From: Candidatus Thorarchaeota archaeon
GTDB taxonomy: Archaea; Asgardarchaeota; Thorarchaeia; Thorarchaeales; Thorarchaeaceae
Direction of reading: 5' to 3'
Assembly (NCBI GenBank): GCA_011364905.1
Contig: RDNZ01000034.1
Span: 1-29,878, forward strand
DNA length: 29,878 nt
Part shown: in pieces, positions 5,362 through 29,739 of the stretch
Position numbering within the stretch: position 1 is the stretch's first letter
Layout: each line of letters starts with the position of its first letter
Program-made: the position numbers and the translations under genes
The notes under the pieces: generated by a model
The model's database searches: none
Told to the model about the DNA's origin: nothing
The model's input: only the letters and a program-made list of their open reading frames with translations

Positions 5362-5727
5362 TTGTCCAACGGCGAGATGGAAATTATGACCACCGAACAG
5401 AACGTATTCATTCCCCCTGTGCAGCTAACCAAACTGTCCGACTTTCAGGATGCTGCAAATGAGGCTGCACTGATTGTCTATAGCCCAGAGTACTTTCAGA
5501 GTCCCTTCTTGGATGATCACAAGAGGCTCAGAAGGCTCACTCTGACTGCAGTTGGTGTAGAGCGGAAAGGCATACCACTCACTTTTCGTTACATTCTTGA
5601 TGATGTTCGAGATATTGACAAGATAGCATCAGAGATACTTGATGACCTTGAACTACGTGGTAATGTTGTACTGGGATCTGTAGAACGCAGCAATCCCCTC
5701 GGCGAAATGCTAGCCGCATGGCCTTGA
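5362..5727 (+). CDS. Hypothetical protein
   Basis: 121-aa ORF behind a strong AT-rich promoter; true start may be ATG 5377 or 5386. Confidence 0.65.
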   Translation: MSNGEMEIMTTEQNVFIPPVQLTKLSDFQDAANEAALIVYSPEYFQSPFLDDHKRLRRLTLTAVGVERKGIPLTFRYILDDVRDIDKIASEILDDLELRGNVVLGSVERSNPLGEMLAAWP

Positions 5728-5824: not shown

Positions 5825-6346
5825 TTGACCAAGCCAGAACCAGTCGAAAAGATAGTACCGCGCATTATGCGGCAATACTCAGAGCGCCCTCGGGGTTGGC
5901 GTATCATGAGCACTCCTCGAGGGGAGATGCTGGTTCTCAGTTCTGACTCGGCTTTTCAGCTGAAGCTCATACCTCTCAATCCCTACGAATTTACTGGAGC
6001 AGGAGTTGAGCTTCCAGAATCAAGTGATGCGGTAGACTCAATCCGGTCTTCTCCTGAGTTTGGACTTCGCCCTCTCAGTGAGTCTGACCTGCGAGGAATA
6101 ATGAATTCCATCACAGGTGAGGAGGGTCCAAAGCTTAGTCTTGATGACATCCTGAAGCGAACACCTCGCGCTCCTGAGGACCTATCCACTGAGTTGCCCT
6201 CTCCAGTTCTCCAGGGGCCAGTCCTCATGAGGCCCGACTTAGGATCATTGAGTCCAGAGATTCTGAAGAGACAGTTGAGTCTGGACAGGTCTGCAGAGAA
6301 GACATTCAGGAAGAAGTATCCTGAACGTGCTAGTATGTACCTCTAG
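5825..6346 (+). CDS. Hypothetical protein
   Basis: 173-aa ORF, co-oriented with the previous gene; no recognisable motif. Confidence 0.65.
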   Translation: MTKPEPVEKIVPRIMRQYSERPRGWRIMSTPRGEMLVLSSDSAFQLKLIPLNPYEFTGAGVELPESSDAVDSIRSSPEFGLRPLSESDLRGIMNSITGEEGPKLSLDDILKRTPRAPEDLSTELPSPVLQGPVLMRPDLGSLSPEILKRQLSLDRSAEKTFRKKYPERASMYL

Positions 6347-6641: not shown

Positions 6642-6714
6642 CCGAAAATCACCCCTTCGGTTAGTAATTACGCATGAAAGAGTATAAACTATCACTCTGA
6701 CTACTGAGAAGAAG

Positions 6715-6756
6715 TGGTGAGCTGGACGTGATTTGAACACGTGACCACCGCACTGT
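6715..6756 (-). repeat. Duplicated 3' half of tRNA-Val(GAC), from the anticodon loop to CCA (att-like)
   Basis: tggtgagctggacgtgatttgaacacgtgaccaccgcactgt is 40/42 identical to 8652-8693. Confidence 0.95.
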
Positions 6757-6848
6757 TAACTAGTTTTCATCTTGCATATCTTTGAGATTCAGACGAATTC
6801 ATATATTTTTTATATCCGATTTTCCATCAAATTTCTGAGGGTCTAGTT

Positions 6849-7610: not shown

Positions 7611-7658
7611 GATGAAACGATGGTTCGTGGAAAGGATATCTCCGGACGTTGAAGTAAG

Positions 7659-7679
7659 TGGTGAGCCGGACGTGATTTG
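7659..7679 (-). repeat. Duplicated 3' end of tRNA-Val(GAC), from the T-loop to CCA
   Basis: tggtgagccggacgtgatttg is 20/21 identical to 8652-8672. Confidence 0.9.
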
Positions 7680-7746
7680 CTGGTTGTATGCTGCGATGTA
7701 GTCCAAGAATCAGTATGTAATGAATGCCACATGGATGACTTTTGCC

Positions 7747-8544
7747 TCACTTCACACCCAAGGCGAACAGAACAGATTTCCTAAATGTCACTCCCTTCTC
7801 CTCTGTCAAGTGTTTTCCCAATGTGTCTAAAGCGGTTTGATATAGTTCATCTAAGCCGGGGCGCTCATCAATGGGTATAGATTCAATGGTATATTGCCAA
7901 CCATAATTCATCATTTGGTGCCACCAATCATGAACCGAAGGATAAACGTAATCGAGATCAAATGTAATGATATCACAGCTGCTAAACTCTGCGTTGGACA
8001 TAATCACATCCCATCCTGCTCTTGTTTCCTTTGAATATCCCACAGGCGCTGAGGGAAGATATGGTTGAACAAGTTTCATAATCCATTCTGAGTCTTCCTG
8101 GAATAACCACGTACTGATTCCCACTTTTCCCCCAGCCCTAAGAACGCGCAGGATTTCGCTCATCACAAGATCTTGATATTTGTATTCATTCTTCTCAAAA
8201 TCGTAACGACGTCCCCAACCTATGAATCCACTCACTATATAATCGAAACTTGCATCGTTAAAGGACATCTCTTCGGCACTCATGACTTGAACTGAAGCAT
8301 TGGAAATACCACACCGTTTAAGCTCAGCAGTAATGTTTTCAACACTCTTCTCCCTTTTGTCTATTCCAGTCACTTGGCCTGTTTTTCCTACTTTCTCCAG
8401 TGCAGGAAACAGCGTGGAGCCTCCCCCAGTTCCAACATCCAATACGTGAGAACCTTTCCTGATCTCGAGCATGTCTACAAGACGATTGCCTAAGACATCC
8501 CAGTAATAGCCCCATGTTGTGGGCTTGTTTCTCAATGGCATCAT
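7747..8544 (-). CDS. Class I SAM-dependent methyltransferase (UbiE/Methyltransf_11-like), cassette gene
   Basis: VLDVGTGGG motif I, VTGID, SFNDASFDYIV, EILRVLRAGG. Confidence 0.88.
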   Translation of the reverse strand: MMPLRNKPTTWGYYWDVLGNRLVDMLEIRKGSHVLDVGTGGGSTLFPALEKVGKTGQVTGIDKREKSVENITAELKRCGISNASVQVMSAEEMSFNDASFDYIVSGFIGWGRRYDFEKNEYKYQDLVMSEILRVLRAGGKVGISTWLFQEDSEWIMKLVQPYLPSAPVGYSKETRAGWDVIMSNAEFSSCDIITFDLDYVYPSVHDWWHQMMNYGWQYTIESIPIDERPGLDELYQTALDTLGKHLTEEKGVTFRKSVLFALGVK

Positions 8545-8651: not shown

Positions 8652-8729
8652 TGGTGGGCCGGACGTGATTTGAACACGTGACCACCGCACTGTCAATGCG
8701 GTATCATAGCCGGGCTAGACCACCGGCCC
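8652..8729 (-). tRNA. tRNA-Val(GAC)
   Basis: Reverse complement GGGCCGG-TG-GTCTAGCCCGGCTATGAT-A-CCGCA TT GAC AG TGCGG-TGGTC-ACGTG TTCAAAT CACGT-CCGGCCC-A-CCA. Confidence 0.97.
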
Positions 8730-8842
8730 AGTGAGGTCTTTGTCCTCTGCTGCCGATTAAAAACATTGCGACAACACCGACATGAATCCAGAGAATCCTG
8801 AAAAAAATCTAATGTGAGTGTTTCACTTACCGATTGTACTCA

Positions 8843-9064
8843 TTAACTTGTTTCTGAACCAGCTATCCAACCACTGGTTTTTACCCCGTGCTTCTCAAGC
8901 CAATAAATGACAAGCCAGACCGTGGATGCAAGTACGATGAACATTGCAAAGATTGAGTTGATGTACAACGCAGCACCATAATCCATCCCCGGTGGATATC
9001 CAAAAATAAGCACAGAGAAAGTTAGAAATTCAATGAGCACAGCTGCTACTAGTATCAAGAACAT
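8843..9064 (-). CDS. Small two-TM membrane protein
   Basis: 73-aa ORF with two hydrophobic helices; start uncertain. Confidence 0.5.
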   Translation of the reverse strand: MFLILVAAVLIEFLTFSVLIFGYPPGMDYGAALYINSIFAMFIVLASTVWLVIYWLEKHGVKTSGWIAGSETS

Positions 9065-9297
9065 TAGTTTGGAAGTATTCTTCGTGTTCTATCGCCTCTA
9101 ATTACCAATCTGGCATCTGCAAAGATTGGGTCCGGTCAAGCCATTGAAATAGCATACCAAGACCACTATCCAATCTATACACATAATGTCGCCAATTTGC
9201 ATAAACATTGCGACGAGATTCACTCGCTTCATTATCCATCCTGTCAATGTCACGTATTTAATACAAAGCTCAGAAGTAAACTTCTGGAGGACACGTC

Positions 9298-10446
9298 ATG
9301 ACGAAGCGCACAAGGTTACTAGTTCCAATTATTGTTGTTCTATTCATAGCACTGGGCTGTTTTTCATTAGTCAGAGCCGATACACAAGTGCAGGAGGAAA
9401 TCAAAGTCTTCGTGGACACGGATGCAGCTCCTGATGACTTCAGTGCTCTCATGTACCTTCTAAGACATCCATCGGTCACAGTCATTGGGATTGGTATATC
9501 ATGTGGTGTATCCTACGTTGACCGCGGTGTTAGCAACACACTCCGAGTCCTGGAATATTTGGGAATCAGCAATATCCCGGTCGCTGCAGGAAAATACACC
9601 CCTCTAGTAGTTGACCACGCCTTTCCAAAGTCGTGGAGAGAATCAAGTAACAACTCCTATGGACTCGATCTTCCGACAACTAGTCAGACACCCTCAGAAA
9701 TGAATGCTTCTGAGCTCATGATATCGTTGATTAGTGGTGCTCAAGAAAATGTGACCATTGTGTGTCTTGGTCCACTCACTAACATAGCTATCGCACTTGA
9801 AGCTCAACCATCAATCAAATCCAAGATTGACAAGATCCATCTCATGGGTGGAGCAGTTGAGGTTGCAGGCAACGTTGGTCCTGAATCGGGTGGAGCAATC
9901 CCGAACTACGTTGCAGAGTGGAATATGTGGGTTGACCCTCAGGCTGCTGACATTGTTTTCAAGTCTGGAGTTCCTATCACAATGGTCTCACTTGACGCCA
10001 CAAATCATGTCCCAGTGACAGAGGATTTCAAGATTCGACTAGAGGGTGTCATGGTCACTCCGGAGGCACGGTTTGTTTACAACGCTACCACGGTTGGTCT
10101 TTATTTCTGGGACCCGCTTACAGCTGTTTCTCTAACAAATCCCGAGGTCGTGACCTTTGAAGAACACCATATTGCGATTGTAGTTGACTTACTGAATCAT
10201 GAAGGACAGACAAACTCAACTGGAGCTGGTAGTGTGAATGCGATAGTTGCTGTGAATGCAGACGCAGATACCTTTGAAGACCTTTTCATCGGATATATCA
10301 ATGGTCATTTACCTACTACACCTATCACAAGTACTCCAACTACTCCAACAAGTGGCGGTCCAATGGAGCCATTATTGATTTTCGCTGTCATAAGCGGGGT
10401 TGCAGTGGTGGCAATAGGCGCAGTTGTATGTATGCGGAGAAAATAG
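9298..10446 (+). CDS. Nucleoside hydrolase (IU-NH family) with signal peptide and C-terminal membrane anchor
   Basis: DTDAAPDD (DxDxxxDD), LGPLTNIA, MGG...GN, AEWNMWVDPQAA and WDPLTA; N-terminal KR plus hydrophobic stretch; Thr/Pro linker, TM and RRK tail. Confidence 0.9.
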   Translation: MTKRTRLLVPIIVVLFIALGCFSLVRADTQVQEEIKVFVDTDAAPDDFSALMYLLRHPSVTVIGIGISCGVSYVDRGVSNTLRVLEYLGISNIPVAAGKYTPLVVDHAFPKSWRESSNNSYGLDLPTTSQTPSEMNASELMISLISGAQENVTIVCLGPLTNIAIALEAQPSIKSKIDKIHLMGGAVEVAGNVGPESGGAIPNYVAEWNMWVDPQAADIVFKSGVPITMVSLDATNHVPVTEDFKIRLEGVMVTPEARFVYNATTVGLYFWDPLTAVSLTNPEVVTFEEHHIAIVVDLLNHEGQTNSTGAGSVNAIVAVNADADTFEDLFIGYINGHLPTTPITSTPTTPTSGGPMEPLLIFAVISGVAVVAIGAVVCMRRK

Positions 10447-10457
10447 CTGAATTCACT

Positions 10458-10523
10458 TTTTCCGGTACTACCAAATCCACTCTCTCCCCGTTCTGTGTCC
10501 GAGAGTTCATCCACCTCAATGAA
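10458..10523 (-). repeat. Duplicated 3' end (22 codons) of the dUTPase gene
   Basis: Encodes FIEVDELSDTERGESGFGSTGK versus dut FIEVDELSDTERGEGGFGSTGR (10859-10924); 54/66 nt identical. Confidence 0.93.
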
Positions 10524-10542
10524 CCTGCGACCGTGTCTATGT

Positions 10543-10830
10543 TTATTCAAGTGTTGACCTGGTTAGACGACGATAGAGTAGGTAAATTGCTATAGATACA
10601 ATTGCCAAAGAAACTAGAAACAAAGATCCATCTGGAATGTGCATTTCAATCTCAGTAACAGGTGTATGCTCCACTGGACCACTGATTTGTGAAAGAAACT
10701 TCATATTTATGATAATAGAAAACAGAACTACAATTACAGCCACAGTTACAACAATCCCAATAAGTGTAGTATTATAATCAACATACTCGCGCTCACGGGA
10801 TACATTGTTGAGTGCCATGTATGAAGACAC
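10543..10830 (-). CDS. Small two-TM membrane protein lying between dut and its duplicated 3' end
   Basis: 95 aa, two hydrophobic helices, basic C-terminus. Confidence 0.65.
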   Translation of the reverse strand: MSSYMALNNVSREREYVDYNTTLIGIVVTVAVIVVLFSIIINMKFLSQISGPVEHTPVTEIEMHIPDGSLFLVSLAIVSIAIYLLYRRLTRSTLE

Positions 10831-10855
10831 TCATGAAACCAATTAAAGGATAGGA

Positions 10856-11290
10856 CTATCTTCCTGTACTCCCGAAACCACCCTCTCCCCTCTCAGTGTC
10901 TGAGAGTTCATCCACTTCGATGAACTCAACCTCCGGCACAGGTCGGATTGCCAACTGACTGATACGCATCCCCTTGGTGATTTTGAAGGGCTCTCCATTG
11001 TGGTTTATCATGATGGTCTTGACCTCACCACGATAACCACTATCAATAGTCCCTGGAGTGTTTAGGACAGTGACACCCTCCTTGAGTGCCAAGCCGCTCC
11101 TTGGCCGCACCTCTCCCTCATATCCTGATGGGATCTCCAATGCGATCCCAGTGGGGACAGCAAACCTCTCTCCTGGTCTTAGCTCGTAGTCTATCGTAGA
11201 AAACAGATCGAATGCAACATCCCCTCTTTTGGCTGCTTTAGGCATCTTGGCTTCAGGTGAGAGTAGTTTGACACGCACTTTTACAGTCAT
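10856..11290 (-). CDS. dut: Trimeric dUTP diphosphatase
   Basis: All five motifs present: AFDL, RPRSGLA, GTIDSGYRGE, RISQL, RGEGGFGSTG; ATG at 11290 (MTVKVRVK) preferred. Confidence 0.96.
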   Translation of the reverse strand: MTVKVRVKLLSPEAKMPKAAKRGDVAFDLFSTIDYELRPGERFAVPTGIALEIPSGYEGEVRPRSGLALKEGVTVLNTPGTIDSGYRGEVKTIMINHNGEPFKITKGMRISQLAIRPVPEVEFIEVDELSDTERGEGGFGSTGR

Positions 11291-11455: not shown

Positions 11456-11818
11456 GTGTCAATGTCTAAAAAGACGCAAGAGGAACTGGACCGATGGTCC
11501 AAGGAAGTAAAGCGAGGAGCTGTGACTCTTGCTATCCTTGCCCTCCTCAGCAAGAGAAGGGCATACGGGTACGAGGCTGTCAAGATTCTCGATGAGAAGA
11601 TGTCTTTCTTGGCTCTTGAGCAGGGCACAGTCTATCCTTTGCTGAGACGACTAGAGAAGCGTGAGCTCCTGAAGTCTGAGTGGGACTATGATGATCCCAC
11701 CAAGCCCAAGAAGTACTATGCAGTGACTGAGGAGGGTCTGATGGCTCTTGGAGCAATGGAGCAGACCTGGTCTGTTCTCTCGCGCGAGATGCGCGGTGTC
11801 ATAACGGAGGTTGAATAA
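11456..11818 (+). CDS. PadR-family transcriptional regulator
   Basis: KRG...LAILALL...AYGYE, GTVYPLLRRLE, KKYYAVTEEG. Confidence 0.93.
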   Translation: MSMSKKTQEELDRWSKEVKRGAVTLAILALLSKRRAYGYEAVKILDEKMSFLALEQGTVYPLLRRLEKRELLKSEWDYDDPTKPKKYYAVTEEGLMALGAMEQTWSVLSREMRGVITEVE

Positions 11819-11820
11819 TA

Positions 11821-12939
11821 ATGAGTAGTAATGATCCATTGGAACTTATCGATCAGTATCTTGATCGTGTTAGAGTATACCTTCCTCTTGACAGTGAGGA
11901 TGCCATAGTCGAACTTCAAACTCACTTGATTGAGGAGGCTGAAAGAATCGGCGAGGGCAAAATGACTGCTGGCTCTGCGATGATGGCCATTGAAAGAATG
12001 GGTGACCCGAAGAGTGTCGCCAATGAATATGCAGGCTCTGGAAAGAAGGTTGGACCTGTTCCAGCTGAATATACCGGGCCCCTGAGCAGAATGCTCGTTG
12101 TGATTGCTGGAGTAGCACTAGCCCTCATCGTGGGCGCGATAATGATTGGAGCATCGCTCACACAACTGTTTGGAGCGAATATTCAGAACTGGCCATTCAG
12201 TATCCCAGTGATGATAGTGATCAATCTCACCATTCTCTTCGTGATAATTGGTGGAATCTCTATGCTCGACCGCAACAGGCCCTTGACAGAGAAGACAACT
12301 CTGGAGAGTTTCTTCGGAATCGGTGTGGAAGGCTTCAAGCCTAAGAGTCGAGTGGATGCTGCCTTTGACTTTGGAGGAGGCCTCTTCTGGGGCTTTGTCT
12401 TGCTTCTGCCAGCTGTAGTGAATCTCTATTCTGAGGCTTTCATGCAGTACTATCCGGTTGTTGCCATATTCCTGTTTCTAGGAGCGCTCAGAGGAGCACT
12501 CTTCTACATCGGTGGTGAGAACAACTTCAATCTGGCTGTAGAAGCAGTCCTGAGCGTAGTGTGGATTGGACTAGCTGTTATTCTCATTGGCGTAGGTTGG
12601 CCTATCCAATACGTCTATGGTAACACCAACGGAATCTGGTACAGATTTGATCTTCTTCAGTTCTTCCAGACTAACAACATCCCCTTTGTGCCGTTCCCCT
12701 ACATATGGACCTTCATCATGTTCATCACGGTGGCTTTCTCTGTCTGGAGAATCATCGTTTCTAGCATGAAAATCACCATGTATGTCCGTGCTGGGAAAGG
12801 GCTCTGGTGGCAAGGCAACTGGGGTAAGAGGCGTCGCTTGAAGACACCTCTCTGGAAGCGAGTTCTCGGAGACCAGCGATCATACCAGGGTGGTACAACC
12901 TACCACGATGGCTATCGCGAAGATGATGAGTCACAATAG
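11821..12939 (+). CDS. Membrane protein with N-terminal HAAS-like domain (PadR partner)
   Basis: IDQYLDRVRVYLP...ELQTHLIE...AIERMGDPKSVANEY followed by about 7 TM helices; starts 2 bp after padR. Confidence 0.8.
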   Translation: MSSNDPLELIDQYLDRVRVYLPLDSEDAIVELQTHLIEEAERIGEGKMTAGSAMMAIERMGDPKSVANEYAGSGKKVGPVPAEYTGPLSRMLVVIAGVALALIVGAIMIGASLTQLFGANIQNWPFSIPVMIVINLTILFVIIGGISMLDRNRPLTEKTTLESFFGIGVEGFKPKSRVDAAFDFGGGLFWGFVLLLPAVVNLYSEAFMQYYPVVAIFLFLGALRGALFYIGGENNFNLAVEAVLSVVWIGLAVILIGVGWPIQYVYGNTNGIWYRFDLLQFFQTNNIPFVPFPYIWTFIMFITVAFSVWRIIVSSMKITMYVRAGKGLWWQGNWGKRRRLKTPLWKRVLGDQRSYQGGTTYHDGYREDDESQ

Positions 12940-17447: not shown

Positions 17448-18092
17448 ATGGAGCAAAAGTCAATGGACCTCACAAAAGTCACAAACATGATAATCGATCT
17501 TGACATCGACAACGTAGCCAACATGGTGCAACAACAGATTGATGCAGGGGCTGATGCGCAGGATCTATTGAAAGCGCTTACAGATGGTATGGAAGAAGTG
17601 GGCCGGAGGTATGAGAACGATGAGTACTTTCTTGCTGAGCTTGTCTTGGCTGGAGATACGATGAAGACCGCCTTTGAAGTCCTCAAACCTCACCTGAAGT
17701 CTAGTGAAACAGGCAATGAAACGACCATCGTGGCTGCAACCGTAAAGGGTGACAATCATGATATTGGGAAGAACATCCTCCTCTCAATGCTGGTGTCTGC
17801 TGGGTTCGAGGTTGTAGACCTGGGCACTGACTGTCCCGCTGAAAAGATCGTCGAAGCAGTGAGGACAACTGGAGCCAAGATTGTAGCACTAAGCGCCTTG
17901 CTCACCACAACGATGAAGGAGATAGCGACTGTCAATGAAGCACTCAAAGAAGCTGGTCTCCGCGATAGTGTGAAACTAATTGTCGGAGGTGCTCCTTTGA
18001 CGATGAATGTGGCAAAGGAGCTTGGTGCCGATGATTATGGCCCGGATGCCATCGATGGGGTAAAACGCATCAAGGCTCTCCTGGAGAGCTGA
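17448..18092 (+). CDS. Corrinoid (B12-binding) protein, MtaC/MttC-like
   Basis: Cap domain GMEEVGRRYE...YFLAEL; DxHxxG motif GDNHDIGKN; SALLTTT; VGGAP. Confidence 0.93.
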   Translation: MEQKSMDLTKVTNMIIDLDIDNVANMVQQQIDAGADAQDLLKALTDGMEEVGRRYENDEYFLAELVLAGDTMKTAFEVLKPHLKSSETGNETTIVAATVKGDNHDIGKNILLSMLVSAGFEVVDLGTDCPAEKIVEAVRTTGAKIVALSALLTTTMKEIATVNEALKEAGLRDSVKLIVGGAPLTMNVAKELGADDYGPDAIDGVKRIKALLES

Positions 18093-25027: not shown

Positions 25028-25133
25028 TCTGGGGAAGAATGGTCTAATGTCAATGGAAAAAAATACCGCTTTCAGCAAGATCTGTATCTATTGGCTCTCC
25101 TTTGGGTCCACTTTTCATGTCGCACGAGTTGAA

Positions 25134-25157
25134 TGGTGGACCGGGTGAAATTCAGAC
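25134..25157 (-). repeat. tRNA-Ala 3'-end repeat R6
   Basis: tggtggaccgggtgaaattcagac, 19/24 identical to 29663-29686. Confidence 0.85.
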
Positions 25158-25259
25158 TCGCAATGATTTCTAGCAGAGTGGCCCAAGAAACGTTTGAACG
25201 GATGATTATTAACCAACTTCTGAGATTGAACTCCGGTTGGTTAGGTACAAGGGGCTGTC

Positions 25260-26750
25260 TTGATGAAACGAAACGGACTGCTTGTAGTTACATCTGTTGT
25301 AATCTTGGGTTTGCTGGCTTCTATCTTGTATCTTGCTTCACAAGGATTCTGGAATGGGACAACCGATTCTTCACCTGATATTATCATTCACAATGGGGAA
25401 ATCATCACTATGGAGCAGTCGCCTGCACAAGTCGAAGCGCTAGCAATCAAAGGTGAGTATATTGTCGCTGTAGGCAATGAGAATGATGTCCTCGCATTGG
25501 CGGGACCAAATACTCAACTCATCAATCTTGAAGGAGGGGCACTTCTACCCGGTTTTATTGATGCTCATGCTCATCATATAGGTGACCGAAGTTATGTGAA
25601 CCAATCATCGTCAGAGGAAGTGATTGAATCAGTACTAAGCTCTGGGTGGACCAGTATTTCTGAACTTTTTGTGAATCCAGAACGCTTGGATGGGCTCATG
25701 TCTTTAGATCAACAGGACAAGCTTCGCGTTCGTGTAAACGCTTACCTCACATTGAGCTGGCAGTTTGATAGGTTCGGCGATTGGTATAAGGAATATCAAC
25801 CCAGGCATGAGTACAGTTCGAAGTTAAGGATTGGAGGAGTGAAGATCTTCATGGATAGCTGGTATACCGACTGGACTCACTACTTCAACCAAACCGAGCT
25901 GGATTCATTGGTGCAACAAGCTCATGAAGAGGGATTTCAGATAGCCATTCATAGTGTGACCGATAACGCAACAGATATTGTTCTAAACGCTCTGGAATCT
26001 GCATTGGACGGGCAATCGAACCAGCTTTATCGTCATCGAATCGAGCATCTTGTCCTCCTCAGAAACGACCAGATACAGAGGATTGCTGACCTAGGAATCA
26101 TAGCTTCTTTTCAACTGACATGGATTAACTCAGACTGGGAACAAGCAGTGTCATGGCCAGTCTTGCAGAACTACCCAGATCTCACAGGAAGATGGAGAGA
26201 TATTCTTGAAGCTGGCATACCCTCACAAGGAAGTACCGATTTTCCATGGCTTCTTGGAACAATAGAGAGATCAGCAATGTATGCAGTTTCTAGTGCTGTC
26301 ACAAGAGTAGGAGGAATGGGGCTTCCACCCACAGATTGGATGTTGAATCAGACTCTCAGTGTCGAACAGGCTTTGCGTCTGATTACAATTGACGCAGCCT
26401 ATGGCACTTTTCAAGAGGATGTAAAGGGGAGCATTAAGGTAGGAAAACTCGCTGACCTAGTCGTTCTTTCAGACAATCCACTCACAGTTCCAGAAAACAC
26501 TCTTGCAAACATAGAGGTACTGATGACGATGGTTGGAGGGGTTGTAGAGTACACAACTCCCGGCCAGCAGTTTTTATCTGCAGAGTTGTTGCTGGCTACT
26601 AATCAAAGAGTTGAATGCTTGAGTCAAATGCCCAAGATGGAAATGATAGATCCATCTAATCAAAAGAAAGGAGTGGTGGACCGGGCGAGATTAGATTCCT
26701 TAGACCATTTAGAAATGAAGTGCAATGAGCCCAACTTCAGTAACAGATAA
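25260..26750 (+). CDS. Amidohydrolase family 3 (YtcJ-like) with N-terminal membrane anchor; cassette gene
   Basis: PGFIDAHAH, GVKIFMD, QIAIHS, RHRIEH, GSTDFP, GSIKVGKLADLVVL; the C-terminal tail reads through repeat R5. Confidence 0.9.
   Translation: MMKRNGLLVVTSVVILGLLASILYLASQGFWNGTTDSSPDIIIHNGEIITMEQSPAQVEALAIKGEYIVAVGNENDVLALAGPNTQLINLEGGALLPGFIDAHAHHIGDRSYVNQSSSEEVIESVLSSGWTSISELFVNPERLDGLMSLDQQDKLRVRVNAYLTLSWQFDRFGDWYKEYQPRHEYSSKLRIGGVKIFMDSWYTDWTHYFNQTELDSLVQQAHEEGFQIAIHSVTDNATDIVLNALESALDGQSNQLYRHRIEHLVLLRNDQIQRIADLGIIASFQLTWINSDWEQAVSWPVLQNYPDLTGRWRDILEAGIPSQGSTDFPWLLGTIERSAMYAVSSAVTRVGGMGLPPTDWMLNQTLSVEQALRLITIDAAYGTFQEDVKGSIKVGKLADLVVLSDNPLTVPENTLANIEVLMTMVGGVVEYTTPGQQFLSAELLLATNQRVECLSQMPKMEMIDPSNQKKGVVDRARLDSLDHLEMKCNEPNFSNR
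26674..26697 (-). repeat. tRNA-Ala 3'-end repeat R5
   Basis: tggtggaccgggcgagattagatt, 20/24. Confidence 0.9.
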
Positions 26751-27104
26751 TCCAATCACAAAACTGACGTGGATTGATAGGACTAAGTTCTCGACCAGCC
26801 TTGGAGGTGATACGAGCGCCAATTCAAGTAGAATGGCCATAATCATTACTATGAGAGGTCTAAACAAAGGATCTACTTTTCCTTCATAAAGTCGCACAGC
26901 ATAATAGAATTCCAGAACTGCAACCGAGATTCCAAAACCAATTGCTCCAAACGGTCCTGCCATGGTAATATCAGGACCATGATCAACTACCCAACTAGTA
27001 TGCAAGTATTTGAAATGCATCACTAATGGAATTGGAGTTATCAATATGCCTCTGGCACAGTGGATAAGTGGCAGCAATCTGGACTCAGCGTCGGTTTGAG
27101 TCAC
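26709..27104 (-). CDS. Small four-TM membrane protein, H-x-A-R family paralog A; cassette gene
   Basis: IHCAR, AGPFG, IHVSFVIGLS.TE; similar to 27830..28225. Confidence 0.75.
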   Translation of the reverse strand: MTQTDAESRLLPLIHCARGILITPIPLVMHFKYLHTSWVVDHGPDITMAGPFGAIGFGISVAVLEFYYAVRLYEGKVDPLFRPLIVMIMAILLELALVSPPRLVENLVLSIHVSFVIGLSVTEVGLIALHF

Positions 27105-27170
27105 TACTGAACCTCATAAATTCGATAATGAAATTCATAGGGGCCAATCAATCTATATCTTTTGGAAAAA

Positions 27171-27193
27171 TGCTGGCCGGACGAAATCCGAAC
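27171..27193 (-). repeat. tRNA 3'-end repeat R4 (degenerate)
   Basis: tgctgg-ccggacgaaatccgaac, 18/24 with one gap; preceded by an A-run like the other repeats. Confidence 0.7.
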
Positions 27194-27267
27194 TCCCGTC
27201 TTCGAAGAGATTTTATTGGTATCTATGAACTCCTTTGATAACAACGCACTCAGGTTGATGAATATCG

Positions 27268-27768
27268 GTGCAACTAGATCCTCAGACCTTCTCAATTGTT
27301 ATCGCAGCCTCAAGCGTCATTATTGGTGTCATTTTCAGCGTTGCTTCTATCCTCATGTCGACTAGAAATGCAGCCAAGTCAAGACAAGCTTCAATCTTTC
27401 TGGAATTCCTCAGTGTCGTTTCAGAGAAGGAATTCTTTGGTGATTTTCAGCAGATTCTTGGAAAATGGGAGTGGGAGGACGCAAAAGATTTCGCCTCCAA
27501 ATATGGACCAGTAACAAATCCAACGGATTACAACACATTTGTCAGAATCGTGACACAATTCGATAGCATGGGGACTCTGGTCCGAAACAAGTTGACTGAC
27601 ATTTTGTTCATGCCCAGAGGAATCGCTATTATGGTCACAAGTTTCTGGGAACGATTCAAACCAATCGCCTCTGACCTGGAGGTGATATGGGGAAATGCTG
27701 ATGTCTTTGGTGAGATCGAATATCTCTACAATGAGATAAAGAAGGCTCGTGTGTCTGTGGTAAAGTAG
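27268..27768 (+). CDS. N-terminal TM protein, DUF4760-like; cassette gene
   Basis: QTFSIVIAASSVIIGV TM, then RQASIF, FDSMGTLV, FWERFKP, IEYLYNE; family call is from memory. Confidence 0.7.
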   Translation: MQLDPQTFSIVIAASSVIIGVIFSVASILMSTRNAAKSRQASIFLEFLSVVSEKEFFGDFQQILGKWEWEDAKDFASKYGPVTNPTDYNTFVRIVTQFDSMGTLVRNKLTDILFMPRGIAIMVTSFWERFKPIASDLEVIWGNADVFGEIEYLYNEIKKARVSVVK

Positions 27769-27789
27769 TGGACCAGGCTTGATTTGAGC
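27766..27789 (-). repeat. tRNA-Ala 3'-end repeat R3
   Basis: tagtggaccaggcttgatttgagc, 19/24; its first 3 nt are the stop codon of the adjacent gene. Confidence 0.85.
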
Positions 27790-27829
27790 TCACTGAAGAC
27801 GATATAGCTGACAACCAATAATCATTAGT

Positions 27830-28225
27830 TTAAGGACTATCTTGTGTATATTCGATTGCTAGCAATACAGCTTCCACAGCAGAGAGTCCAATTACAAAGC
27901 TTACATGAATTCCGAGAATCAATCCATCAATAGATCTCAAAGAGCCTGCAAAAGTAAGTTCAATCAGAACGGCTAAAACCATCAAACAAAAGGGAATACG
28001 CAGATCATCCATCTTTTCTTCGACTAGTTGTTTGCCGAAGATGCCCTCTAGAAGTGCGACTAAAACTATCAGACCGTATGGGCCAGCCCGAATTACTACA
28101 ACCATGTCCCACGGGAATTGAGATAATATGTAGGACTGCCTAACCTCCAAGGCAATTATTAGTGAGAGGACCAACACGGTCCTTGCCGCGTGAATGACTC
28201 CCAGATTCCTCTGTATCTTAGTCAA
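27830..28225 (-). CDS. Small four-TM membrane protein, H-x-A-R family paralog B; cassette gene
   Basis: IHAAR, AGPYG, IHVSFVIGLS.VE; GAGGGA SD before TTG. Confidence 0.75.
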   Translation of the reverse strand: MTKIQRNLGVIHAARTVLVLSLIIALEVRQSYILSQFPWDMVVVIRAGPYGLIVLVALLEGIFGKQLVEEKMDDLRIPFCLMVLAVLIELTFAGSLRSIDGLILGIHVSFVIGLSAVEAVLLAIEYTQDSP

Positions 28226-28304
28226 ATCAATCCCTCACAAACCAACCTGATACTAGTAGACTGGATGCCTATTAATCAAACTCAACAAGCAATCAGAAAA
28301 GAAA

Positions 28305-28326
28305 TGGTGGATCGGGCGTGATTTGA
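28305..28326 (-). repeat. tRNA-Ala 3'-end repeat R2
   Basis: tggtggatcgggcgtgatttga, 20/22. Confidence 0.92.
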
Positions 28327-28818
28327 CTATGAAAAATCGGAGATAGCCTGATTTCTCCCCAGTCCTTTGGCCAATAGCCCCATTTCTAATGTCCCAAGTA
28401 GAGATACTCCCAGTATCAAAAGGACCTTTGCTAAAACAGGCACGGTAGCTGGAATATCTAATCCATACACAAACAGAATATTATCTGTGATAAGCAGAAG
28501 GATAACTTGAGATACTAATTGACCTAGCGTCGGAAGTACATATCCGCCTAGTGTTTTCCAGTGTTTTTGGAGTACATACACATCAAGTCCAATCAACACA
28601 ACTGCAGGGACAATAAAGACGAACGGATATGAGACTAGTGACGGATATGGTCCCCCAGGACTGTTAAAGACATCAAAACGGTACTTTTCGTAGTTGACAT
28701 GTAGTATGAGTGGAAAGGAAGTGAAAACTGTCACTCTTGCCAGATGTAATAGTCTAACCAATATTGGTCTGTTCGAGTGTTCACCTACTTTCTCTTGATA
28801 TAAGCCATTTGACAGCAC
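28327..28818 (-). CDS. Four-TM membrane protein, distant H-x-A-R family paralog C; cassette gene
   Basis: LHLAR...PLILHVNY, GGPYP, LEMGLLA align with paralog A (IHCAR...PLVMHFKY, AGPFG, TEVGLIA); start may be GTG about 27 nt downstream. Confidence 0.7.
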   Translation of the reverse strand: MLSNGLYQEKVGEHSNRPILVRLLHLARVTVFTSFPLILHVNYEKYRFDVFNSPGGPYPSLVSYPFVFIVPAVVLIGLDVYVLQKHWKTLGGYVLPTLGQLVSQVILLLITDNILFVYGLDIPATVPVLAKVLLILGVSLLGTLEMGLLAKGLGRNQAISDFS

Positions 28819-28881
28819 CTGAGTTACCCTCTTAGAGATATTCTAAATGAGCTTAGAAAATGTTTCTTACGCAAGAAGAAG

Positions 28882-28905
28882 TGGTGGACCGGGCGTGATT
28901 CGAAC
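28882..28905 (-). repeat. tRNA-Ala 3'-end repeat R1
   Basis: tggtggaccgggcgtgattcgaac, 24/24 identical to the tRNA. Confidence 0.97.
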
Positions 28906-28953
28906 TATGACATTGATAGAATATGTTAATATGCCCTCATTCGAAAGTATCAC

Positions 28954-29652
28954 TTGGAGTTTCGGGAATTGGTGTTCAATCAATCCACAAAGAGAATCGT
29001 GGGAATTGCTACTGCACTTGTTTTGGTAGGAATTATTATTGTTGGGTTCTCCATTGCATTGAACCCTCCTACCAGCAACATACCAGATCCACCCTTTCTT
29101 TATTCCAGCTTGAATGACCTATTCAGATACCGCAATGACACTCTAGGTGGTGCTGTGACTAACTACCTAGAATTCGAACTTTCATTTAGTAATTTTCAAG
29201 ATGGGAGTGCCTTCCTGAGATTGGCCCGTGCCATAATCACAGTATGGGTGGCCGATGTAACAACTCATCAACCCGACGCCACTTTGATGCAATATGATCC
29301 ATCTAGTTCATTGATTTCCTGTAATCCACCAAGACCCCGGTATCAGTTATTCTTCAGTGACAACAATGCTACTGATGGAGAATGGTCCGCTACTGGAACC
29401 TGTACAGTGATTCTGGGAACAACTGAGTTGCTCGAGAGTAACTCAATTGTTGTTTACTATGGTTTTATGATGAGTAATAATCTAGCAAGAGAATTGGATG
29501 GACATCAGTTCCTTGTCAAGATTCAGGCTGACATCACATACAATGCATTCTACTTGGGAGGAATATTAAATTTTCATTATCAGGATGCGACCTACAATTG
29601 GACATTGGGTGAAGATGTGCCTATCTACATGCTGCCTGCTGATTCAACATGA
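28954..29652 (+). CDS. Single-TM exported hypothetical protein; tRNA-proximal cassette gene
   Basis: N-terminal TM, beta-rich domain with N-x-S/T sequons; stop lies 10 bp from the tRNA CCA end. Confidence 0.7.
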   Translation: MEFRELVFNQSTKRIVGIATALVLVGIIIVGFSIALNPPTSNIPDPPFLYSSLNDLFRYRNDTLGGAVTNYLEFELSFSNFQDGSAFLRLARAIITVWVADVTTHQPDATLMQYDPSSSLISCNPPRPRYQLFFSDNNATDGEWSATGTCTVILGTTELLESNSIVVYYGFMMSNNLARELDGHQFLVKIQADITYNAFYLGGILNFHYQDATYNWTLGEDVPIYMLPADST

Positions 29653-29662
29653 ACCAAAAAAG

Positions 29663-29739
29663 TGGTGGACCGGGCGTGATTCGAACACGCGACCTCTTCC
29701 ATGCCAAGGAAGCGATCTACCGGGCTGATCTACCGGCCC
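29663..29739 (-). tRNA. tRNA-Ala(GGC)
   Basis: Reverse complement GGGCCGG-TA-GATCAGCCCGGTAGATC-G-CTTCC TT GGC AT GGAAG-AGGTC-GCGTG TTCGAAT CACGC-CCGGTCC-A-CCA, with the G3:U70 alanine identity pair. Confidence 0.98.

Follow-up and report, generated by a model that had tools for sequence, protein, structure and literature searches.

The dut (dUTPase) locus of a Candidatus Thorarchaeota archaeon raises the question of how the end of an essential housekeeping gene can come to stand twice on a chromosome, with another gene between the two copies, and the gene itself remain intact. The locus lies in a stretch of 29,878 nucleotides (contig RDNZ01000034.1 of assembly GCA_011364905.1, positions 1 to 29,878; the window), which belongs to a metagenome-assembled, 3.08-Mb genome (81% complete, contamination 4.6%) that we call G000. 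A preliminary description of the window reported that the last 22 codons of dut are duplicated 401 bp downstream, with a single gene for a 95-aa membrane protein in between, and our analysis confirmed this arrangement. It is a real, well-defined recombination scar in a gene-swapping hotspot before tRNA-Val, and the features at its centre are the following.

11290..10856, minus strand: dut (dUTPase), 144 aa, intact, matching the full Pfam model PF00692 with E = 4e-30
10856-10858, minus strand: dut stop codon, TAG
10859-10924, minus strand: active dut tail (allele A), the last 22 codons, running through the stop into F2
10904..10927, minus strand: perfect 9-6-9 palindrome, GAGTTCATC GAAGTG GATGAACTC, over codons 122-129, at the 5' edge of the duplicated segment
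10543..10830, minus strand: F2, a small gene for a 95-aa protein with two predicted membrane helices
10458-10523, minus strand: displaced dut tail (allele B), codons 123-144, a pseudogene remnant (nhmmer E = 1.7e-12)

The two 3' ends of dut

The dut protein is well conserved in the genus, and was found at 80-92% identity in 21 of the 27 congeners that were searched besides G000 (the genus set comprises 28 genomes). Both tails encode the conserved dUTPase motif V. They differ at 12 of 66 nt, with 10 synonymous and 2 non-synonymous differences (Gly138>Ser and Arg144>Lys), a count that agrees with the preliminary description; the differences are spread evenly along the segment, with no clustering at a putative site, and identical runs reach 14 nt at most. 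By the Nei-Gojobori method the 66-nt tail has 14.8 synonymous and 51.2 non-synonymous sites, with proportions of different sites of 0.67 (pS) and 0.04 (pN), respectively, and the probability of at least 10 synonymous changes out of 12 under neutral decay is P = 1.4e-5 (binomial). Residues 138 and 144 are variable also among the intact dut genes of congeners. This signature of purifying selection, together with the variability of the two replaced residues in working genes, indicates that the differences arose while both ends worked in dut, so that the two tails are the ends of two diverged, functional dut alleles. The proposal that both evolved as functional ends in different lineages is borne out by their surroundings, each being contiguous with a spacer that follows an intact dut elsewhere (see below).

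The displaced tail is now a dead, decaying remnant. It has no stop codon, the T of TAG having been deleted (1 nt, at ~10457) relative to the relatives G013a and G004, and its reading frame runs on antisense to the neighbouring gene. When the whole genome was compared with itself by BLASTN, the tail pair was recovered over 65 nt (83% identity, E = 3e-10), and at the dut locus it is the sole repeat of its kind.

The palindrome at the 5' edge of the duplicated segment is the best paired among 50 related dut sequences, and is largely a by-product of coding for the peptide EFIEVDEL. A hairpin or RNA element in the duplicated segment was considered and rejected, as the fold was no better than that of shuffled sequences (z = -1.2, -0.4) and there was no Rfam match.

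Two spacer haplotypes joined in one locus

The surroundings of the two tails, from the conserved left flank to the tRNA gene on the right, comprise these features.

11456..12939, plus strand: PadR regulator and HAAS-domain membrane protein (Pfam), the conserved left flank, syntenic in all relatives
10526..10877, minus strand: block A, with the last ~7 dut codons, the intergenic sequence, F2 and a remnant of the left part of the promoter region; colinear with G010
10526..10540, minus strand: that remnant, the left part of the tRNA-Val promoter region, ATAGACACGGTCGCA, 15 nt, ending just before the TATA box
9247..10524, minus strand: block B, with the displaced tail and the nucleoside hydrolase gene; colinear with G013a
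9298..10446, plus strand: inosine-uridine-preferring nucleoside hydrolase, 382 aa, convergent with dut (Pfam PF01156, E = 3e-61)
9203..9214, minus strand: second promoter remnant, GTCGCAATGTTT, exact over 12 nt, lying between the 73-aa open reading frame (ORF) and the start of the hydrolase gene
8843..9064, minus strand: 73-aa membrane ORF, the last spacer gene, with no Pfam match
8754..8778, minus strand: functional tRNA-Val promoter region, GTCGCAATG + TTTTTAATCG, with putative B recognition element (BRE) and TATA box
8652..8729, minus strand: tRNA-Val(GAC) (ARAGORN), the right anchor of the variable spacer

Each tail continues into a different spacer. The active tail runs through its stop and the intergenic sequence 'TTTAAyTGGTTTC' into F2, and the same dut-F2 junction is found in G022 and G016; block A aligns with G010, where a decayed dut end, F2 and the promoter follow one another, with 73% identity over 352 nt (E = 2e-52). 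Block B, in turn, matches G013a in one continuous alignment from dut codon 123 to the stop and on through the hydrolase (78.8% over 1280 nt). In G013a an intact dut has the hydrolase immediately after it, and in G004 a remnant of the hydrolase takes that place, with the same dut-hydrolase junction. Given this colinearity, of the active tail and F2 with G022, G016 and G010 on the one hand and of the displaced tail and hydrolase with G013a and G004 on the other, the G000 locus contains two alternative spacer haplotypes, placed head to tail by a non-homologous join. In G004 (L035, C109), ~55-185 nt past dut, the hydrolase consists of the first ~43 codons and the 3' end on either side of an internal deletion, and F13 and F2 genes come after the remnant.

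The remnant at 10526..10540 stands directly upstream of the displaced tail, save for GG at 10524-10525, so that the junction runs from GTCGCA of the promoter-left remnant through GG to TTCATT, at dut codon 123. G015 and L064 have the last 12 nt of the remnant, GACACGGTCGCA, in identical form after their dut stop, and the same promoter element follows F2 in G010, G022 and G016, where it continues into 'AyGTTTTTAATCG' and the tRNA. Because the junction partners have at most 1-2 nt in common, the junction is non-homologous. In ~45 related loci the promoter region is conserved, at a constant distance from where the tRNA begins; its conserved element, GTCGCAAYG followed by TTTTTAATCG, lies ~25 nt before tRNA-Val, and was read as a putative BRE plus TATA box. 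The stretch 9190-9225 and the G010 junction were also considered as full-length decayed promoters and rejected, as the alignment scores fell within the shuffle range; the 12-nt core at 9203..9214 was kept.

The order PadR regulator, HAAS protein, dut is conserved throughout the relatives, and tRNA-Val(GAC) is found downstream of dut on the same strand in every relative whose contig reaches far enough. Between these fixed points the sequence is variable, and dut appears as the left border of a variable spacer that has the tRNA-Val promoter as its right border. An 'empty' state (dut stop, ~12 nt, promoter) is found in ~20 related loci; the most distant loci of all (dut 69-79% identical) are among them, which makes this state probably ancestral. 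Non-empty spacers carry one to five genes, drawn from the membrane-protein families F2/F14, F6 and F13, the nucleoside hydrolase, a GNAT acetyltransferase and a gene set present in L065/L066. The best reading of this pattern is a hotspot for the exchange of whole haplotypes between species. The idea that dut is a target independent of, and beyond, tRNAs was not sustained, since dut lies right beside the tRNA-Val promoter and the junction itself is formed on one side by sequence of the promoter region. As to the tRNA-Val gene, it has one intron in L066 (10624-10827), two in G015 (L037, C86, 637-807) and none in G000; ARAGORN misses the intron-containing copies.

The same holds for the foreign origin claimed for the captured gene. 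F2, the only gene between the two dut tails, has homologues confined to the dut-tRNA-Val spacer of congeners (G010 61%, G022 40%, G016 32%), which makes it a member of a fast-evolving, spacer-only family and not foreign cargo. An exact-protein look-up gave no identical protein on record in public assemblies, and a Pfam search gave no toxin or immunity annotation. An N-terminal 'YGCSxIG' motif, two membrane helices after it and a basic tail are common to F2 and F14, whose divergence is very rapid (30-60% identity between species).

One relative, G013, offers a view of the exchange within dut. Two contigs that carry different spacers each have 77 identical nt in common with a single contig of the dut 5' part, and the dut genes of the two haplotypes are identical to codon ~102 and ~10% divergent from there on, which marks a homologous crossover inside dut between haplotypes. 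The haplotypes are dut-hydrolase-F6-promoter and dut-F6-promoter (contigs C68, C91 and C49; L019, L042 and L043), and the assembly breaks at the dut branch point, with the recombination breakpoint lying within one sampled population. The G013 and G009 contig starts at dut codons 75-77 were examined as a second class of boundary and rejected, being k-mer overlaps at a strain branch point.

Displaced dut tails recur within the genus

Displaced tails were sought in the relatives with a profile of the dut 3' end (nhmmer) followed by direct alignment, and were found in at least five lineages of the genus (G000, G003, G010, G042/L056 and L065/L066); none was present downstream of dut in a control set of 44 unrelated dut loci from metagenomes. 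The G003 tail (E = 2e-8) comprises ~21 codons and forms an in-frame fusion with the end of an F2 paralogue. L065 and L066 have a tail of 67 codons, 72% identical to the active copy and with 31 synonymous vs 15 non-synonymous codon differences, which lies directly before the promoter and behind a 3.9-kb insert of five genes. The G042/L056 tail is decayed (~30 nt) and also directly precedes the promoter, behind the GNAT gene, and in G010 a decayed tail stands before F2 and behind F6. Every old tail has kept a neighbour that some other genome has behind its intact dut: the G003 tail and F2b match dut and F2 of G009, and the L056 tail and promoter match G014.

The boundary of the duplicated segment could be determined in three cases, at codon 123 in G000, 6-8 nt further (codon ~124) in G003 and at codon ~78 in L066. 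The first two are both inside the 24-bp palindrome, and the variation between codons ~123 and ~78 argues against one fixed attachment site. A recurrent boundary for L056, G042 and L061, taken from nhmmer coordinates, was rejected, as direct alignment of L056 and G042 left only ~30 nt firmly alignable. The insert behind dut in L066 (6616-10165; also in L065) carries HD, phosphoribosyltransferase-like (PRTase-like), radical-SAM, 96-aa and nucleoside diphosphate kinase (NDK) genes, all on the strand opposite to dut, so that a nucleotide-metabolism set stands beside the dUTPase; it may be a nucleotide-modifying or defence module.

With these data, two alternative origins of the G000 structure can be weighed. 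A local tandem duplication of the dut end followed by decay, or the remnant of a full second dut, might be suggested by the 67-codon partial copy of L065/L066, which could be seen as a member of a deletion series. Neutral decay of a local copy, however, cannot yield a pS of 0.67 with a pN of 0.04, the two copies match different haplotypes of other species in colinear order, and no relative has a full tandem dut at this locus. We regard this explanation as close to refuted, with only the slightest chance left to it, and the structure is an insertion scar, not an in-situ duplication followed by decay. An assembly chimera of two strain haplotypes is conceivable in a metagenome-assembled genome with 4.6% contamination, the more so as strain-level branching occurs exactly in dut in G013. 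The two haplotypes, however, have no sequence of k-mer length in common at the junction, and the same architecture is present in the independent assemblies G003, G010, G042, L056, L065 and L066 (two samples), which leaves the chimera with a practically negligible probability.

Enzyme-driven integration could be suggested by the layout, which resembles attL and attR sites with a restored gene end, and by the boundary palindrome (9-6-9), which resembles a recombinase core site. In the same window, arrays of one-gene units stand behind tRNA-Val and tRNA-Ala. Of the tRNA fragments in the window, five of tRNA-Ala and one of tRNA-Val begin in the T-loop, and another of tRNA-Val, at 6712-6770, begins exactly at the first base of the anticodon loop. 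The T-loop and the anticodon loop are the classical crossover positions of tRNA-targeting integrases. Spare tRNA tails lie at 6690-6820, 7630-7760 and 25128-29739. These features could point to a tyrosine or serine integrase with its attB site in the dut 3' end, and to an element with a dut tail in attP, since reduced to one gene. The 81% complete G000, however, has no match to PF00589 (tyrosine recombinase) or PF00239 (serine recombinase), and no Phage_integrase match at all, so that no XerA-type recombinase was detected; PF00589 is present in 8 of the 28 congeners, mostly on short contigs. The 401-bp insert holds no recombinase or nuclease gene, only the 95-aa membrane ORF, and it is chromosomal spacer that includes a tRNA-Val promoter remnant, not element DNA. 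The boundaries, moreover, differ among lineages, and the tails have no identical core longer than 14 nt. An integrase origin is, in our judgement, a slim prospect.

In the e14 and phage 21 systems of Escherichia coli, the incoming DNA gives an alternative icd 3' end with mostly synonymous differences, the original end is left as a pseudogene fragment, and the reaction is catalysed by an integrase at a fixed core and inserts a prophage of 15-40 kb. Prophage e14 and phage 21 are said to integrate into the icd 3' end in work attributed to Hill et al. 1989 and Wang et al. 1997. As in these cases, the function of dut is kept through an alternative 3' end supplied to it, whereas the dut insert is a 401-bp piece of chromosomal spacer, with no integrase found, no fixed core and variable boundaries. 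Likewise, tRNA accretion arrays (tycheposon-type islands) and integrons rely on tyrosine recombinases and att or attC sites. The dut spacer is similar to them in having one-gene units at a conserved site with spare copies of the site in between, and dissimilar in that no tyrosine recombinase was found and the boundary is not fixed. Of integron features, no tyrosine recombinase of the IntI kind was found in G000, and the dut tail has no Rfam match and folds like its shuffles.

Another possible agent is a homing endonuclease. The WHO elements at FBA1 of the yeasts Torulaspora and Lachancea repeatedly replace the 3' end of a housekeeping gene, the earlier ends decaying downstream (Coughlan et al. 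2020, PMC7282813); every unit brings a LAGLIDADG-type endonuclease gene of its own, against whose product the new tail gives resistance, and the duplicated fragment can act as a second homology arm (PMC7282813). The dut locus has the same architecture, with a new functional 3' end at the gene body, cargo, and an older tail displaced downstream and decaying (more decayed in G010, G042/L056 and G003 than in G000). By analogy, a nuclease would cut sensitive dut alleles near codons 122-129, and repair would copy the resistant tail with its cargo, using the old downstream tail as second homology arm, the nuclease gene having been lost from the unit or acting in trans. The G000 and G003 boundaries in the palindrome would be compatible with a nuclease site there.

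A candidate nuclease family does exist in the genus. A 523-aa ORF in L066 (10806-12377, minus strand), just downstream of dut, abuts the tRNA-Val 3' end and belongs to a multi-copy, patchily distributed family of 520-900 aa, with 0 copies in G000 and up to 11 in G015 (among them G015:C86:20300-21382). The conserved domain of the family has two invariant Asp residues, and in a model with a predicted local distance difference test score (pLDDT) of 84.7 it is predicted to fold like the LAGLIDADG endonucleases PI-SceI, I-Tsp061I and I-DmoI, as identified by fold search only, a sequence-profile search against PDB sequences having given no match. In G015 a pseudogene copy comes immediately after tRNA-Val, with a spare tRNA tail of 21 nt beyond it, so that the family abuts the tRNA-Val 3' end in two lineages. 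Most copies are not beside tRNAs or gene tails; ARAGORN, which is blind to intron-containing tRNA-Val, found no tRNA gene beside the other copies. Elsewhere the family sits in a three-gene module with 180-aa and ~195-aa partners.

The presence of this LAGLIDADG-like family keeps a WHO-like homing model alive for the genus. Against it, none of the five dut inserts examined has a nuclease gene (they contain F2, F6, GNAT, or the HD/PRTase-like/radical-SAM/NDK set), nor does G000 have a copy of the family or a significant LAGLIDADG match in Pfam, where the one sub-threshold match (E = 0.03) is to an 862-aa ORF on contig C15. In addition, the tail differences are not concentrated at the putative site, the L066 boundary is elsewhere, at codon 78, and most copies of the family lie away from tRNAs and gene tails. 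We therefore hold homing at dut to be improbable.

A proposed exchange of spacer haplotypes, and tails behind other genes

The account that we prefer, and to which we would give slightly less than an even chance, is that the 3'-end displacement scar stems from an incomplete exchange of spacer haplotypes, with one homologous and one illegitimate junction and with the F2 block as the incoming DNA. The sequences demonstrate the two-haplotype structure, its junction, the signature of purifying selection and the recurrence in the genus; from this product we infer the order and direction of events, the role of the palindrome and the manner of DNA entry as follows. The 3' half of dut and the tRNA-Val promoter and gene would act as homologous arms for haplotype exchange. 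DNA from a donor lineage with the layout dut, small membrane gene, tRNA-Val promoter would recombine homologously, and in frame, inside the resident dut, and the other donor end would break in the promoter region just before the TATA box and be joined illegitimately to codon 123 of the resident dut, at the 24-bp palindrome. By this route dut would gain a foreign functional tail and one gene, and the resident tail, still attached to its nucleoside hydrolase, would be pushed 401 bp downstream, where it would decay and lose its stop. No dedicated recombinase would be required. The active dut is intact and in frame, and for this reason one junction must have been guided by homology.

Such a product would be expected of a haplotype exchange with one failed homology arm, by homology-facilitated illegitimate recombination or by the single-crossover integration of a circularised fragment. 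We know of no demonstration of the former process in archaea. It is described from experiments in naturally transformable bacteria, where recipient DNA is usually deleted (de Vries & Wackernagel 2002, PMC122324; Prudhomme et al. 2002, PMC122325; both as cited in PMC5361080). The likeness lies in a non-homologous junction beside an anchor, which traps foreign DNA; at dut, the process is read from its product alone.

Close architectural parallels are found in bacterial effector loci. C-terminal displacement has been described at rhs, contact-dependent inhibition (CDI) and type VI secretion system (T6SS) loci (Jackson et al. 2009, BMC Genomics 10:584, as far as it is cited in PMC5361080), and for T6SS effector loci one homologous anchor and one illegitimate junction were proposed, with no integrase (Kirchberger et al. 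2017, PMC5361080). There, as at dut, a constant gene body gets a new 3' end with a linked small gene, and the old 3' end is orphaned further downstream together with its neighbours. In those systems, however, the tips consist of variable toxin domains with partner immunity genes and are under diversifying selection, whereas the dut tip is a conserved housekeeping end with near-synonymous differences, its cargo a membrane protein and its host an archaeon. The dut scar is archaeal and has neither the toxin logic of the rhs cases nor the endonuclease gene of WHO nor the integrase of the icd cases. Such tail displacement is not described in a paper on Asgard mobile elements (PMC8813620).

Several points weigh against our preferred account. 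Neither the homologous crossover in G000 nor its direction could be mapped, although the dut gene is intact and in frame and the G013 crossover lies at codon ~102. The tails are only 83% identical, with a longest identical run of 14 nt. Such tails are a poor substrate for homologous recombination of the kind known from bacteria. Several independent promoter remnants end within ~6 nt, and two dut boundaries lie within 8 nt of each other; these clustered ends hint at a site preference, which the account explains only ad hoc, by breakage at the palindrome or a protein-bound promoter; an enzyme may also lie behind it. With completeness at 81%, the genome may lack an enzyme gene that the organism has, and the account must assume a route for the entry of foreign DNA into Thorarchaeota.

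The structure, moreover, is the same for two orientations of the event, block A entering through dut or block B entering through the promoter or tRNA. In the second, hydrolase-type DNA starting by chance at dut codon 123 would have entered a resident with dut, F2, promoter and tRNA-Val, recombining homologously in the promoter or tRNA and being joined by its left end at the border of the promoter homology; the 'displaced' tail would be a passenger, and the dut 3' end would never have been replaced. Consistent with this, the promoter-left remnant is the constant partner in at least 4 junction types, ending 0-6 nt into the conserved GTCGCAAYG, and the other partner varies, being the dut tail in G000 and unrelated sequence in G003/G023, in L067/G009 and at 9203-9214 of G000. 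This fits joining at the edge of a highly conserved promoter/tRNA anchor, and would account for the variable length of the dut fragments. On the other hand, the reversed event requires in G042/L056 and L065/L066 the import of a useless 'empty-type' fragment behind cargo that was already there, and homologous crossovers are documented inside dut (G013), not shown in the tRNA. Neither objection is decisive, and we consider the reversed event rather unlikely.

The preliminary description held that incoming DNA had displaced the resident end; the insertion scar stands, whereas the direction could be either one, given that both orientations lead to the same structure. Compared with 50 related dut sequences, the 5' part, the middle and the two tails of dut in G000 have no relative closer than ~88% in nucleotides, and for the 63-nt tail segment many species rank within 2-3 differences, with near-saturated synonymous divergence. 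As there is no close relative and the segment is short and near-saturated, tree or nearest-neighbour comparison cannot settle the direction. The crossovers inside dut of G013, together with L056 and L066 seen as empty loci that gained cargo, mildly favour block A as the incoming DNA.

G000 was also scanned for orphan tails, and three further cases came to light, behind actin, the TATA-binding protein (TBP) gene and a carboxyltransferase. The last 9 codons of an actin homologue (C35, 4422-5564), with ~80 nt of the terminator region, are duplicated 656 bp downstream, the repeat units at 5510-5624 and 6166-6278 enclosing one membrane-rich ORF; the duplicated unit includes a 10-bp terminator-like hairpin. 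More than 10 congeners (loci L168-L177) have this ~100-nt unit in 2-4 repeats behind their actin gene, with a 5' boundary that is mostly within ~5 nt. The carboxyltransferase (C10, 8287-9834, minus strand, 516 aa) has a frameshifted tail of ~37 codons at 7776-7853, 434 nt downstream, with a 64-aa single-helix membrane ORF in between, in the same layout as at dut. Behind TBP (C9, 16829-17437), a tail of ~19 codons with an internal stop lies at 17529-17588, 92 nt downstream and with no intervening gene. The cargo behind actin and the carboxyltransferase, as in the dut spacer, consists of small membrane proteins.

Of the general process at conserved gene 3' ends that had been put forward, these cases uphold the pattern, and not a defined mechanism. 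In its broadest form, accessory genes in Thorarchaeota, or Asgard-wide, would be gained mainly by integrase-free 'tail displacement', which would act where conserved and highly expressed genes end (tRNAs, 16S rRNA, actin, TBP, the carboxyltransferase and dut), with the dut scar as one product. Its driver would be either recombination alone, between co-resident chromosomes of different lineages, or the multi-copy LAGLIDADG-fold proteins of the genus acting in trans. We find this doubtful.

What the dut locus does offer is an instance of gene gain beside an essential housekeeping gene without breaking that gene and, apparently, without an integrase. It is a readable test case for the tail-copy arrays in Asgard genomes: its coding frame makes the origin of each copy readable, because the synonymous bias points to two functional alleles, and a different remnant stands at either flank, a dut tail at one and promoter sequence at the other. 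Recombination between lineages, anchored by homology, accounts better for the varying boundaries than a fixed attachment site would. Should the process be general, it would bear on the growth of Asgard genomes and the exchange of genes between them, and on models of gene flow near the origin of eukaryotes.

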